Positions 1,499 to 61,561 of a stretch of 64,000 nucleotides of DNA are shown in pieces. The DNA is from Candidatus Magasanikiibacteriota bacterium. Lineage in GTDB: Bacteria > Patescibacteriota > Patescibacteriia > Magasanikbacterales > UBA922. Below the pieces are notes generated by a model. The model ran no database searches. It was not told the origin of the DNA and saw nothing but the letters and a program-made list of their open reading frames with translations. The stretch's first letter is position 1; each line of letters opens with the position of its first letter. The stretch lies in NCBI GenBank assembly GCA_014729395.1, contig WJJZ01000014.1:1955-65954 (forward strand), written 5' to 3'. The position numbers and the translations under genes are program-made.

Positions 1499-1531
1499 GG
1501 CTTATTTCAGCTAATAATTAATAAACTTAGC

Positions 1532-1560
1532 TTGACAAAACCTTATTTTTCTGCTATTAT
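1532..1560 (+). promoter_or_regulatory. Sigma-70-type promoter TTGACA-17-TATTAT
   Basis: ttgaca(1532-1537), 17-nt spacer, tattat(1555-1560); extended agcTTGACA also seen at 2418-2428. Confidence 0.55.
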
Positions 1561-1597
1561 TAAGCGTTAAAATCGGTTCATTTTATTAAGGTTTATC

Positions 1598-1659
1598 CTT
1601 GCTTTCTTTAGGTTTGTTTTTGCTTTTAAAGCAGATCAAAAGAAAGCTTTGGGATAAAC
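1598..1659 (+). ncRNA. Structured 5' leader: long imperfect hairpin GGTTTATCC...GGATAAACC with inner GCTTTCTTT/AAAGAAAGC pairing, upstream of the GC-rich ORF
   Basis: Inverted repeats read directly; function unknown (candidate cis-regulatory RNA). Confidence 0.3.
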
Positions 1660-1764: not shown

Positions 1765-2319
1765 ATGAAGATTACGGTAGAGCAAATTGGTGAGCTGGTG
1801 GAGCAGAGCAAGGGAGAAAACCCGAGAATCACCCGGGAAAGCCTGCAGGCCTTCCTGCGGAATCCCCATTCGGAGGTAAACGCCAAGTCGGTCGAGTACG
1901 TCGTCTCCGTCGATTACGGGATGAGCCTCGCCGAGATGATCGCCGCCGGTCAGTACGGCTGGAAGAACAGCGACATCAACGCGGACAACTTCCCTGTCGC
2001 GGGCGAGGGTATCGCCGAGACCAAGCTCGAGCTTGTCCACCTCAACAAGAAGGCGAGCACGGACGAGGTCGAGGCGTATCTCGAGGAGAACGACCTGCGT
2101 CCGGCGACGCTCGCGGAGCTCCTGGCGTTCGGGACCATGTTCCCCGAGATCCAGCGGGACTTCCCCGTGATCGCTCTCGGCTCGTCTTGTGTCCGCTCGG
2201 ACGGCAACCGGTTCGTGCCCTACCTCTACAGGGACGGCTCCGAGCGGAGCCTCAACCTGAGCTGGGACGACCACGACTGGTACGAGATCTTCCGTTTCCT
2301 CGCCGTCCGCAAGTCCTAG
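1765..2319 (+). CDS. Hypothetical protein, about 65% GC, horizontally acquired (actinobacterial-type codon usage)
   Basis: ATG at 1765 after SD aaaggagcg; GC3 near-saturated, unlike all neighbours; ORF track starts at the upstream in-frame ATG 1747; no recognisable domain. Confidence 0.55.
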   Translation: MKITVEQIGELVEQSKGENPRITRESLQAFLRNPHSEVNAKSVEYVVSVDYGMSLAEMIAAGQYGWKNSDINADNFPVAGEGIAETKLELVHLNKKASTDEVEAYLEENDLRPATLAELLAFGTMFPEIQRDFPVIALGSSCVRSDGNRFVPYLYRDGSERSLNLSWDDHDWYEIFRFLAVRKS

Positions 2320-20801: not shown

Positions 20802-20878
20802 GTATTTCAATTAACAATTCAGATAAATCAGATTTAAGCACAGCATTTTTTGTCTTGGCAGGAACAGCTTTCAACTGT

Positions 20879-20957
20879 GTCATTCCCGCGAAGGCGGGAA
20901 TCCAAATTAAGTAAGCAATACGCCTTTTGCCTGGATTCCCGCCTTCGCGGGAATGAC
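20879..20957. repeat. REP/MITE-like palindromic element: 25-bp perfect inverted repeats GTCATTCCCGCGAAGGCGGGAATCC / GGATTCCCGCCTTCGCGGGAATGAC around a 29-bp spacer
   Basis: Read directly; each arm is itself a hairpin ATTCCCGC-GAAG-GCGGGAAT; related copies at 35752-35948. Confidence 0.7.
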
Positions 20958-21060
20958 ATTGCTTTTTTCAATAATACCTATAGTGTTAACTTTAGGTATG
21001 GATGGGTATCATATTCTAAATTTTTTAATTAGTGCTAATCTTTATTAACAACTTACAATT

Positions 21061-35751: not shown

Positions 35752-35948
35752 ATGTCATTCCCGCCCCCCCCTCTACACGAGGATAAACTCCAGCGGGAAT
35801 CTAGGAAATAGAAAGATGGATTTTTGAATACTGGATTCCCGCCGGAGCCTGTACCCTTGTAAAGGAAGTGGTATTCATATACTGGATTCCCGCCTTCGCG
35901 GGAATGACATTGAGACGATTTCTTCTGTAGGGGGCGGGAATGACATTG
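35752..35948. repeat. Cluster of 4 full or partial copies of the GTCATTCCCGC..GCGGGAATGAC REP-like element
   Basis: gtcattcccgcc..gcgggaatc (35755-35800), ggattcccgcc (35832-35842), full ggattcccgccttcgcgggaatgacattg (35883-35911), gggggcgggaatgacattg (35930-35948). Confidence 0.65.
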
Positions 35949-56862: not shown

Positions 56863-57339
56863 ATGAAGACGGATAAAATTCAGCACAGTATCATCAACGC
56901 TCTTCAGCCGAGGCTTAGCTGGTTCGCATATGCAAAGAAATGGATAAGGGTTCCTGAAGATCTGTGGGGCACCCTCTGCCTAATCGCAGAAGCGGCTGCC
57001 AAGGCGGCAGAAAGTGAATGGTTACTGGCTCAAGCAGGTTCCCCGCATCGTAGCACGTTATCCTGCATGGAGCTTGAAGAAAAAACCCCGCAGCACGCAG
57101 GGTTCCATTTGTCCATTCTGACCTACCACGATGGTATTGATGAGACACTTAGTTTCATAAAATATGTAGGTCATGAATTTGAACTCGAAAAGGAGTCGCT
57201 TGGCAAGGCTCTCCAGCTGGCCGAGGAGGCAACACGTGAACCCCAAAATCTAGAAGTACAACTCGAGGTCAGTTGGGCCGAGTATCTCCCTTCTCGAATA
57301 ATCAATCCACTCTACAAATGGAGGAGGGATGAACAATAA
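56863..57339 (+). CDS. Hypothetical protein (158 aa), GC-rich (about 50%) island
   Basis: SD ggaaagg; compositionally distinct from neighbours; no recognisable domain; followed by nested hairpin cccgggtaagcg...gggaatg-tcttaccg-cattccc. Confidence 0.45.
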   Translation: MKTDKIQHSIINALQPRLSWFAYAKKWIRVPEDLWGTLCLIAEAAAKAAESEWLLAQAGSPHRSTLSCMELEEKTPQHAGFHLSILTYHDGIDETLSFIKYVGHEFELEKESLGKALQLAEEATREPQNLEVQLEVSWAEYLPSRIINPLYKWRRDEQ

Positions 57340-59052: not shown

Positions 59053-59988
59053 ATGGAAGATGAAAAGGCAAATGTTATCGCCTTCAAGAAATCGAAAACC
59101 GAAGATGATGATACGATTGAAGATATATGGCAAAATTCTGAAACATTGGACCAAGCTTTTCAGAGAGTTATGAAGCCTCTGATTGATGAGCGTGATGCAC
59201 TAAAGGAGAAAAATTCCGAACTTGTCGAACTTGTCGAAGAAAAAAACCGAGTAATCATTGATTTCTCACGTGAAAATTTATTTTTAAAACGACAAGTCCT
59301 TGATACGGATTTGGTACGCCACACTTTTCATGATATTAATAACTTACTGACGTCCATAATTGGAAATGGTATGATGATTCCGAGTTGTTCAAAACAACAA
59401 CAAACTGTAAAGCATGTTGAATCAGTCATATTTGCTGCTGAGCAAATGGGGGATTTGATTAGAAATGTTCAGGATATTTTGCACAAAGGGGGTACACAAA
59501 AAGTATCTGTTGATATCAATGATATAATTCGGCGTACCGCCGGTATGATCCGTGTAAAAATAAATCTAAACCTCGATCCATCGAGGCCCTACATACTAAT
59601 GAATAAAGCTGAATTTTTTCGCATCATCTATAATCTGGTACAGAATGCTTATGATGCACTCACGGATGAAGCCGGAAGAATCGAAATCTCTACTGCAATT
59701 TTTACCAAAGATGAATCTCTGAATGATATTTTTGCTGACCATAATAAAAAGAATGTATTGATAACCGTTAAGGATAACGGTCGGGGGATGACAAAAGAGG
59801 TAAGACAAAAAATCTTTGACCGCTCATTTACCACAAAAACTATAGAAAAGTGGAAAAGTGGTCTTGGCTTGACTCTGGTAAAACAACTGGTTGAAGCTAG
59901 TGGAGGTACTATATCGGTAAATTCATTGGAAGGTGTTGGTACATCCTTTTATCTTCAATTTCCTTTGATTGCAATGGGAAAGGCCTAA
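59053..59988 (+). CDS. Soluble sensor histidine kinase (coiled-coil N-terminus, HisKA-like H-box, HATPase_c)
   Basis: H-box VRHTFHDINNLLTSIIGN; N, G1 and G2 boxes (NLVQNAYDA, DNGRGM, GLGLTLVKQ). Confidence 0.7.
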   Translation: MEDEKANVIAFKKSKTEDDDTIEDIWQNSETLDQAFQRVMKPLIDERDALKEKNSELVELVEEKNRVIIDFSRENLFLKRQVLDTDLVRHTFHDINNLLTSIIGNGMMIPSCSKQQQTVKHVESVIFAAEQMGDLIRNVQDILHKGGTQKVSVDINDIIRRTAGMIRVKINLNLDPSRPYILMNKAEFFRIIYNLVQNAYDALTDEAGRIEISTAIFTKDESLNDIFADHNKKNVLITVKDNGRGMTKEVRQKIFDRSFTTKTIEKWKSGLGLTLVKQLVEASGGTISVNSLEGVGTSFYLQFPLIAMGKA

Positions 59989-60051
59989 TAATATTGGGTC
60001 TTTTTTTATTGAGACATGCTAGTAACCAAAATGATATTTTTTAAAATAATA

Positions 60052-60083
60052 ATACCCCACTCTTATGTAGGGTATTATTTTTT
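60052..60083 (+). terminator. Terminator hairpin (ataccc-cactcttatgta-gggtat + TTTTTT)
   Basis: Read directly. Confidence 0.5.
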
Positions 60084-60084
60084 G

Positions 60085-60433
60085 CTCGGCGGGCGAGATT
60101 CGAACTCGCGACCCATTGGTTACATCGATTCTTACTCTTTCGAATAAGGATGGACTATATCATCACCCGTGCCATAGACTTCTTTAAAAGAAGAACACTG
60201 GGGTGCGAGGCGCTTCCTCCTTACCAAATCAAATGATTTGCAGAAGTACTCCCGAAAGGGATAGTCTCTGAACCTTCCCAACTCCATATGTGGTGTTGGA
60301 CTCGGCTGCTGATCACCCATCCAGATTAATAAGGACTAGGGCTTCCAGCAATTCACCTCGTTTTCATCTTGATGTTTCCACCAAGAGCTGCTTTTAAATA
60401 CAGCCAATTGCTCTACCACTGAGCTACCGCCGA
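60085..60433 (-). tRNA. tRNA-Asn(GUU) interrupted by a group I intron; exons 60433..60400 (34 nt) and 60122..60085 (38 nt); no CCA encoded
   Basis: Minus strand: acceptor TCGGCGG/CCGCCGA (7 bp), D arm GCTC-AGTGGTA-GAGC, anticodon stem ATTGG/CCAAT, spliced loop CTGTTAA (anticodon GTT), T arm GCGAG-TTCGAAT-CTCGC, discriminator G. Confidence 0.8.
60123..60399 (-). ncRNA. Group I self-splicing intron (277 nt) in the tRNA-Asn anticodon loop between positions 35 and 36
   Basis: Core elements P AATTGCTGGAAG, Q GATCAGCAGCC, R GGTTCAGAGACTA, S GATGATATAGTCC; 5' exon ends ...GCTGT pairing with intron GCAGC (U-G at the splice site); intron ends with G (60123). Confidence 0.75.
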
Positions 60434-60486
60434 ATTAAGTTTAAATTTGCTTACGAATTGGACATTCATAAACAAATTTGACCTAA
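60421..60486. repeat. Direct repeat copy A (tRNA 5' end plus 53 bp upstream), repeated at 60665-60730
   Basis: ctaccgccgaattaagtttaaatttgcttacgaattggacattcataaacaaatttgacct is identical in both copies. Confidence 0.7.
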
Positions 60487-60664
60487 CATAACAAAAAAGC
60501 GAAGTGGTGCCCACTGCCTGCCCACCGAAGTCCCGAGCTTGTCGAGGGACGGAGGTGGGAGCTACCGCCGATCACGTAAAGCAGACTTCGTCTGCCACGT
60601 GACAAGATCATTTTATTTTAAAACCAAACTGCTCTTGTCGCGTGGTGAGCGAAGCGAACTTTAC

Positions 60665-60730
60665 GCGAAGCTACCGCCGAATTAAGTTTAAATTTGCTTA
60701 CGAATTGGACATTCATAAACAAATTTGACC
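60665..60730. repeat. Direct repeat copy B (12 nt of the tRNA-Asn 5' end plus the same 53-bp upstream segment)
   Basis: Read directly; a third 13-nt copy of the tRNA 5' end lies at 60548-60560. Confidence 0.7.
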
Positions 60731-60895
60731 TATTTTTAGTTTTGTGAACAAAAAAATTATAGCATCTGTGCTAAATTCAGTCAAGAAATGATTATTTTAT
60801 TTACATTTTAAAAAAAATTTATCAAAATTTTATTATAATTGTTTTATAATACTTGCATAAATAGCTCTTTATGATAAATTATAAAAAAAACTATT

Positions 60896-61561
60896 ATGAA
60901 AATTTTAGTGGTCGAAGACGAACCAGGTCTTCAAAGAGTATTACGAAATACTCTGAAATCTGAATGCTATGCAGTTGATGTCGCCAAAAATGGTGAACAA
61001 GGCGCTTTTTTGGGCACAACTGGAGATTATGATTTGATAATTCTTGATAACATGCTTCCCAAGCTATCCGGAGTTGAAGTTTGCAAAACGATCAGGAAAT
61101 CGGGTAAAAAGAACCCAATACTAATTTTGTCGGCTATCTCTGAAATTGAAAAAAAGGTAGAGATGCTCGAAGCGGGGGCTGACGATTATATGTCAAAGCC
61201 TTTTTCAGTTGATGAATTACTGGCTCGAATCAAAGCCCTTTTACGCAGACCTAAATCATTATCCAAAGAAAAAATAAAAATAGGCAATCTATCTATTGAT
61301 TTAGCTGATTACACAGTTAAATTGAATAACAAAGCAATTGAATTGACAAGAAAAGAATTCATGCTCTTGGTATATTTGGCAAAAAACAAAGGGAATGTAA
61401 TGTCGAGAGGAAAAATAATGGAACATGTGTGGGACATAAACGCAGACCCTTTTTCCAATACTATTGAATCACATATATTGAGTCTGCGAAAAAAAATCGG
61501 AGATAAGGGTAAAAATAATATTATAAAAACAGTTCCCGGCAGAGGATATAAAATAGATTAA
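60896..61561 (+). CDS. OmpR-family response regulator
   Basis: Receiver D residues (DD...ILDNMLP), K of SKPF, winged-helix C-terminus TVPGRGYK. Confidence 0.85.
   Translation: MKILVVEDEPGLQRVLRNTLKSECYAVDVAKNGEQGAFLGTTGDYDLIILDNMLPKLSGVEVCKTIRKSGKKNPILILSAISEIEKKVEMLEAGADDYMSKPFSVDELLARIKALLRRPKSLSKEKIKIGNLSIDLADYTVKLNNKAIELTRKEFMLLVYLAKNKGNVMSRGKIMEHVWDINADPFSNTIESHILSLRKKIGDKGKNNIIKTVPGRGYKID

Follow-up and report, generated by a model that had tools for sequence, protein, structure and literature searches.

The reading that we favor for the upstream region of the tRNA-Asn gene in the window (the whole 64-kb stretch of DNA that was analyzed), with a probability of about 50%, is that of a scar left by recent, lineage-specific insertion and duplication in the transcribed leader of an intact, intron-bearing tRNA gene and not that of a separate gene. 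The leader is about 300 bp longer than the promoter-29-nt leader-tRNA layout of the syntenic relative L003 (GCA_964433095.1), and the tRNA exons and the intron are untouched.

A repeat search of the window revealed a direct repeat of 64 bp with 100% identity at 60422-60485 and 60669-60732 (spacing, 247 bp). Each copy consists of the 52 nt upstream of the tRNA, here called L52, and tRNA positions 1 to 12 (TCGGCGGTAGCT, minus strand). Copy A1 (60422-60485, minus strand; L52 at 60434-60485) is attached to the intact tRNA, and copy A2 (60669-60732, minus strand; L52 at 60681-60732) is an upstream orphan. The original prediction had described a perfect repeat of 62 bp at 60425-60486 and 60669-60730; the repeat is indeed real and perfect but is 64 bp long, and these positions were out of register by a few bases. 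A third copy of the tRNA 5′ end, reported as the 13-mer GAGCTACCGCCGA in reverse complement at 60548-60560, also exists but lies 11 nt away, at 60559-60571 (minus strand), where it comprises tRNA nt 1 to 13 (TCGGCGGTAGCTC, here t13) in the same, direct orientation as the other two copies. With up to 2 mismatches allowed, the tRNA 5′-end motif occurs 4 times in the window, versus 0.27 occurrences expected. The 183 bp between the long copies (60486-60668) is composed of a palindrome (H), the third tRNA 5′ end, and a GC-rich segment (S). That the intervening DNA is GC rich had been predicted correctly: its GC content is 52%, with 59% in S and a peak of 64 to 66% per 100 nt, versus 34% in the window. 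On the tRNA-sense (minus) strand, the order is promoter, 23-nt leader, A2, H, t13, S, A1, and the remainder of the tRNA. If H and one 12-mer are taken out of the sequence, S is flanked by a perfect repeat of 65 bp, made up of L52 and tRNA nt 1 to 13. All of the breakpoints are at tRNA position 12/13.

No tRNA was found by ARAGORN in the raw 64-kb window because the tRNA-Asn gene is interrupted by a 277-nt group I intron. The intron was recognized by Rfam as a full-length RF00028 match (60409-60131, minus strand; 95.6 bits, E = 2e-23). The 5′ splice site was placed at the U·G pair of P1 (U35) and the 3′ splice site at the G preceding TAACCAAT, and the spliced sequence was called by ARAGORN as a 73-nt tRNA-Asn(gtt); the tRNA is intact. 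Assignment to the group I introns is based on the RF00028 match, the P1 U·G pair, the terminal G, and the canonical tRNA obtained after splicing. Exon 1 of the tRNA-Asn(GUU), as defined by in silico splicing and ARAGORN, covers positions 1 to 35 (60400-60433, minus strand), with its first 12 nt within A1; the intron (60123-60399, minus strand) interrupts the anticodon loop, separating anticodon nucleotides 35 and 36; and exon 2 covers positions 36 to 73 (60085-60122, minus strand), with CCA not encoded, and is identical to that of L003. Just 3′ of the tRNA, an inverted repeat forming a hairpin with a T-run (60044-60083, minus strand) is probably the tRNA terminator. The intron is found at the same position in the window (tRNA-Asn locus 60085-60433, minus strand), in the CPR contig L003 (4461-4810), and in a second CPR contig, L002 (5763-6152), with lengths of 277, 278, and 318 nt, respectively. 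By itself, the intron is not new, since group I introns in tRNAs of CPR bacteria have already been reported (PMC8172020). The arrangement resembles the group I introns in anticodon loops of other bacterial tRNAs (cyanobacterial tRNA-Leu and tRNA-fMet; CPR [PMC8172020]) in that an RF00028 intron interrupts the anticodon loop, here that of tRNA-Asn; the likeness, however, concerns the host gene and not the duplicated block. Nothing was found to connect the intron with the rearrangement upstream of the gene.

L003 was found through the closest homolog of the response regulator encoded near the tRNA (P0047), and its gene order (iPGM, tRNA-Asn with intron, response regulator, Gmad2 gene) matches that of the window. 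The syntenic comparison is one with a single, distant relative whose response regulator is 67% identical. Its tRNA exons are identical to those of the window, and its intron (93.5 bits) is 78% identical. L003 has a single tRNA 5′ end behind a 29-nt leader and the promoter TTGACT/TG-TATACT. L002 was the sole contig returned by a metagenome scan with the 34-nt exon 1; exon 1 is identical there, a group I intron (70 bits) occupies the matching site, the 5′ end occurs once, and the promoter is TTGACA-17-TATAAT. The "empty" tRNA-Asn locus that the original prediction had proposed to look for in related genomes is thus at hand: L003 is without L52, H, S, or the duplication, and L002 is likewise single copy. 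Since both loci are simple and single copy, the structure in the window is best described as a lineage-specific insertion, and this comparison implies that L52, H, S, and the duplication each arose in the lineage of the window. A scan of genome contigs by way of the histidine kinase gene near the tRNA yielded no relative, and the loci of the other response regulator homologs (L004 to L008) are nonsyntenic, with no tRNA nearby. The histidine kinase itself (59053-59988, plus strand), which is convergent with the tRNA-Asn gene, has no homolog with more than 36% identity among 5.8 billion proteins and is not present at this position in L003; for the adjoining response regulator, homologs with about 60% identity number in the thousands.

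A strong, TG-extended σ70-type promoter (TTGACT-17-TATAAT; 11 of 12 positions) is predicted at 60756-60784 (minus strand), 5′ of both repeat copies. According to the alignment, it is the ortholog of the tRNA promoter of L003, and orthology extends through the 23-nt stretch of leader that follows (60733-60755, minus strand), covering most of the 29-nt tRNA leader there; the two loci are collinear over the promoter, the T-run/GTTC, and TAAAAATA. When the core of L52 is deleted, the window reads CTAAAAA-AT followed by TCGGCGG, versus TTAAAAATAT followed by TCGGCGG in L003. L52 forms a hairpin, which as tRNA-sense RNA has a 21-bp stem and a folding energy of −17.9 kcal/mol, versus −9.1 kcal/mol for the opposite strand, and its 3 G-U pairs are all on the tRNA-sense strand. 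The whole leader is a string of independent hairpins (z = −7.6). A TTTGAC box had been taken for part of the duplicated upstream region, and it is indeed present in both copies (60477-60482 and 60724-60729), but it is on the plus strand, antisense to the tRNA, and belongs to the stem of the L52 hairpin; no promoter was called within the 52-nt leader in a promoter scan. The best candidate found by hand, TTGTTA-18-TATGAA at the S/L52 junction, matches at 8 of 12 positions and is under the threshold of the scan.

H (60572-60668) is a 97-bp imperfect palindrome set exactly between two direct copies of the 12-mer TCGGCGGTAGCT. It folds with −43.2 and −41.3 kcal/mol on the two strands (z = −6.3 and −6.9). 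Its arms pair at 28 of 40 positions by Watson-Crick rules and at another 8 by G-U-type pairs, and since these G-U rescues are split evenly between the strands (4:4), the symmetry is at the level of the DNA. The nested hairpin that had been noted earlier is present (within 60572-60609) but is merely one arm of this palindrome. H has terminal inverted repeats, is small, and is noncoding, with spurious open reading frames (ORFs) of at most 48 amino acids only; the 12-bp duplication flanking it is perfect, and the adjacent bases differ on each side. These features are those of miniature elements of the MITE type, and H also resembles MITEs and the palindromic intergenic elements of the Correia, RUP, and ERIC type in its arms of about 37 to 40 nt without an ORF and in its position in a transcribed intergenic leader. 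In contrast to MITEs, one copy of H is known, with no other in the 64-kb window, in L002 to L008, in viral contigs, or in phage and plasmid records; no related autonomous insertion sequence (IS) or transposase was found among the window ORFs scanned; and the target duplicated here coincides exactly with tRNA nt 1 to 12. Since no second copy was found, we call H MITE-like by its architecture. IS4-group transposases generate target duplications of 10 to 13 bp (PMC2266710), but the ends of H (TCRCGTAAAG) do not fit the IS4-group end consensus (PMC2266710). Elsewhere in the window, REP/dRS3-like GC-rich palindromes built on ATTCCCGCGAAGGCGGGAAT are present at 20878-20958 and 35754-35930; in one of them, perfect arms of 27 nt are separated by 27 nt, and at least 3 copies are clustered near 35.8 kb. 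They represent a repeated family distinct from H.

S (60486-60558, minus strand) is a 73-bp filler for which no homolog was found. It has no terminal inverted repeats, and its folding is not significant compared to shuffled sequences (z = −1.0 and −1.5). At its 3′ end, a weak terminator-like hairpin with a U-run is predicted (60493-60519, minus strand; terminator scan 60515-60503 plus TCGCTTTTTT), with a 5-bp stem (9 bp if bulged), a folding energy of −7.2 kcal/mol, and a U-run that begins 4 nt past the short stem. Very long and variable target duplications, from 8 to 514 bp, are known for IS1634/IS1549 (PMC2266710), and a short insert flanked by a perfect direct repeat, here of 64/65 bp, is reminiscent of these. 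However, S is only 73 bp long (183 bp with H), is without terminal inverted repeats, and is not an IS, and there is no IS1634-like transposase near it.

A search of the insert against noncoding RNA and phage databases had also been proposed and was carried out, with no Rfam, phage, plasmid, or viral match. In Rfam (59900-60900, E ≤ 10), only subthreshold miRNA and snoRNA noise touched the insert, and RF00028 alone passed the gathering threshold. Neither the window nor the fetched loci yielded further copies of H, S, or L52. A search of viral contigs with four exact patterns (S core, H arm, tRNA exon 1, and S/t junction) gave 0 matches, and blastn against phages and plasmids gave only noise for the insert; the tRNA part matched phage tRNA-Asn genes. 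Since gene callers might have translated homologous elements, six-frame peptides of the insert, concatenated, were searched against 5.8 billion proteins, with nothing at E ≤ 1. Integrases, transposases, and reverse transcriptases were not found; Pfam analysis of the tested ORFs of at least 120 amino acids spanning the 64-kb window revealed housekeeping functions only. A similarity of the H loop to the tRNA anticodon arm (P ≈ 0.04) was not significant with genome-wide controls, and a similarity of S to the flank of a GC-rich cassette (P ≈ 0.007, uncorrected) was put down to chance, as other windows scored equally high genome-wide. Indeed, no local similarity of H or S to the tRNA, the intron, L52, or the GC-rich parts of the window was significant after such controls. 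Retron, diversity-generating retroelement (DGR), IStron, CRISPR-like, attC, and split-tRNA candidates were rejected on the basis of wrong sizes and motifs and the lack of a reverse transcriptase gene, of a Cas gene, and, within the insert, of a complementary 3′ acceptor strand.

A stepwise history is the simplest explanation for the locus because a perfect 65-bp repeat is left once H and one 12-mer are removed. In the first step, an AT-rich hairpin of 46 to 50 bp (L52) would have entered 2 nt upstream of tRNA +1, possibly with duplication of TA. In the second step, the foreign GC-rich S (73 bp) would have entered together with a 64/65-bp duplication of L52 and tRNA nt 1 to 12/13, giving an A-X-A arrangement; a long-staggered target duplication, a single-crossover (Campbell-type) integration, or a bridged unequal exchange could have produced it. 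In the third step, the palindromic H (97 bp) would have inserted into the orphan copy A2, duplicating 12 bp (tRNA nt 1 to 12). Each duplication would rebuild a complete 5′ end beside the tRNA body, and the tRNA gene would therefore survive. The last two events are probably recent, since the repeat copies are 100% identical, whereas the leader otherwise cannot be aligned between relatives. Transcription from the promoter at 60784-60756 would run through a leader of hairpins (L52, H, S, L52). The weak terminator in S could cause a partial stop, so that either read-through would be needed or the weak promoter at the S/L52 junction would be used. RNase P would then trim the real tRNA 5′ end, and the orphan fragments of 12 to 13 nt would be discarded with the leader. 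Against this history stands the finding of no transposase among the window ORFs scanned, and the lack of terminal inverted repeats in S leaves no enzyme to which its entry with a duplication of 64 bp can be ascribed. Moreover, two independent random insertions would hardly be expected both to end at tRNA 12/13, a hint of site specificity or of one complex event.

Because the breakpoints coincide in this way, we retain a site-specific, att-like model or a single complex event as a minority reading. According to the att model, one or two integrase- or Campbell-type elements would have integrated in tandem at a core within tRNA nt 1 to 12 and would then have been deleted almost entirely, leaving the layout attL, remnant 1 (H), att, remnant 2 (S plus L52), and attR; S-L52-t12 would be a module carried by the element (terminator, leader, 5′ end) that restored the tRNA. 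Such a history would account for the same 12-mer in three direct copies with every breakpoint at tRNA 12/13, for the terminator-like hairpin that closes S directly ahead of the restored leader and tRNA, and for the A-X-A arrangement, which is expected from single-crossover integration; the direct repeats carrying tRNA nt 1 to 12 flank the insert, and the site is empty in L003 and L002. Like the duplications that integrase-mediated islands and prophages leave at tRNA genes, partial-tRNA repeats surround DNA of foreign composition next to an intact tRNA. Here, however, the 5′ end and not the 3′ portion of the tRNA is duplicated, whereas the known tRNA-targeting integrases reportedly duplicate the 3′ part of the gene. 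Furthermore, scanning of ORFs across the 64 kb revealed neither a tyrosine nor a serine recombinase gene, the insert has no real ORF, and the "island" or its remnants sum to just 183 bp. The identity is mostly in the leader: 52 nt of nonconserved leader are shared, so that attP would need a host-specific leader. A simple integration also predicts the ancestral leader directly ahead of the upstream copy, but this is preceded by L52, and neither S nor the S/t junction has a match in viral contigs or phage records. Taken together, these findings make an att-site scar unlikely. The original prediction had interpreted the locus as the scar of integration or excision events with the tRNA 5′ end as the attachment site. 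A derived insertion at the tRNA 5′ end is what the empty loci of L003 and L002 argue for, but there is no evidence for an integrase or an att site, and use of the tRNA 5′ end as an attachment site is unsupported: the ORFs scanned gave no integrase, transposase, or reverse transcriptase, the size is only 183 bp, and the identity extends into the nonconserved leader and not into the tRNA body. We agree with its caution that the sequence alone leaves the history unsettled, although stepwise insertions describe the locus better.

A second alternative, which we consider improbable, is that the block encodes a functional RNA, i.e., a small RNA or regulatory leader of about 255 nt (L52, t12, H, t13, S) extending from the tRNA promoter to the S terminator. 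The tRNA 5′ fragments might then act as decoys or partners of the tRNA 3′ acceptor strand, or the output of tRNA-Asn might be attenuated. A GC-rich, strongly folding leader in an AT-rich genome, a strong promoter just 5′ of it and a terminator-like site at its end, and the better folding of L52 as tRNA-sense RNA with its G-U pairs on that strand are consistent with this. However, the block is absent from the syntenic L003 and from L002, and no homolog was found in Rfam (E ≤ 10) or in the phage, plasmid, viral, or peptide searches. In addition, H has no strand bias, S is no more structured than shuffled sequences, and the predicted terminator is weak, with a bulged stem. A tRNA-primed RNA element, the other possibility raised originally, is unsupported: no Rfam family matched at E ≤ 10, a reverse transcriptase was not found, and the structure of S is not significant.

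Another GC-rich insertion was found near the other end of the window. Relative to L003, there are about 830 extra bp at 1622-2494, mostly an ORF with 62 to 70% GC (1765-2319), and at the 3′ end of this block (2401-2497), the upstream promoter and leader (1510-1606) recur as a diverged direct repeat, with a local score of 46, versus maxima of 41 in 1,568 control windows and 39 in 500 shuffles. The region 1510-2497 is therefore a possible older A-X-A analogue, with a foreign, GC-rich X just 3′ of a promoter; because the statistical support is modest, we treat it as a lead and not as a result. It hints at a recurrent route of DNA acquisition and speaks against an assembly artifact. Such an artifact, an A-X-A loop made by a metagenome assembler or by chimeric reads, is very improbable: the source is a short-read metagenome-assembled genome, no independent copy of the contig was found through exact gene products, and X is of foreign composition, but each of the two junctions (A2/H and S/A1) would need read support, the 13 nt shared by X and the tRNA are too few for k-mers to form a bridge to another genome, the usual assembler settings have no k − 1 of 64 bp, 12-bp repeats that exactly bracket a palindrome and a 65-bp repeat after its removal follow a biological logic, and assembly error could not have produced the possible older, diverged analogue on this contig.

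If the preferred reading, an insertion-duplication scar, is right, the locus is a snapshot of a reduced, AT-rich CPR genome taking up small pieces of foreign GC-rich DNA, with the DNA entering a transcribed leader and target duplication preserving a tRNA that is probably essential and single copy. Intron-bearing tRNA genes, invisible to standard tRNA finders, can hide rearrangements, and the orphan tRNA 5′ fragments and the unseen tRNA-Asn call for caution in annotation. The locus is also a candidate marker of strain-level variation. The scar alone opens no new mechanism, and it would gain greater weight only if H or S were found again in related genomes or if these held additional promoter-proximal A-X-A insertions. 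It is a long shot that H, S, and L52 represent an undescribed class of small, nonautonomous CPR elements that insert just 3′ of strong promoters, in this case right at the 5′ border of a tRNA gene. If this were true, such elements would hitchhike on host transcription, duplications of 12 to more than 60 bp would rebuild the interrupted start of the gene, and the possible older insertion at 1510-2497 would represent an instance of this process with cargo.

The protein encoded by the ORF at 1765-2319 (plus strand; 184 amino acids) has no Pfam, PHROG, or NCBIfam match but belongs to a large unnamed family, with 4,554 cluster representatives at E ≤ 1e-3, some with 2 or 3 tandem domains. A second ORF with 55 to 61% GC (56863-57339, plus strand; 158 amino acids), located between the iPGM gene and a cadherin-like gene, also has no match in Pfam, PHROG, or NCBIfam. 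Finally, an AT-rich promoter with a long 5′ leader is conserved between the window (1529-1622) and L003 (4272-4179, minus strand), with 78% identity over 95 nt and the motif GGTT(T/C)ATCCTTGCTTTCTTT, which is unusual for genomes so divergent. This leader precedes a small ORF in both, at 2559-2786 in the window and at 3608-4069 in L003 (153 amino acids, about 56% GC).
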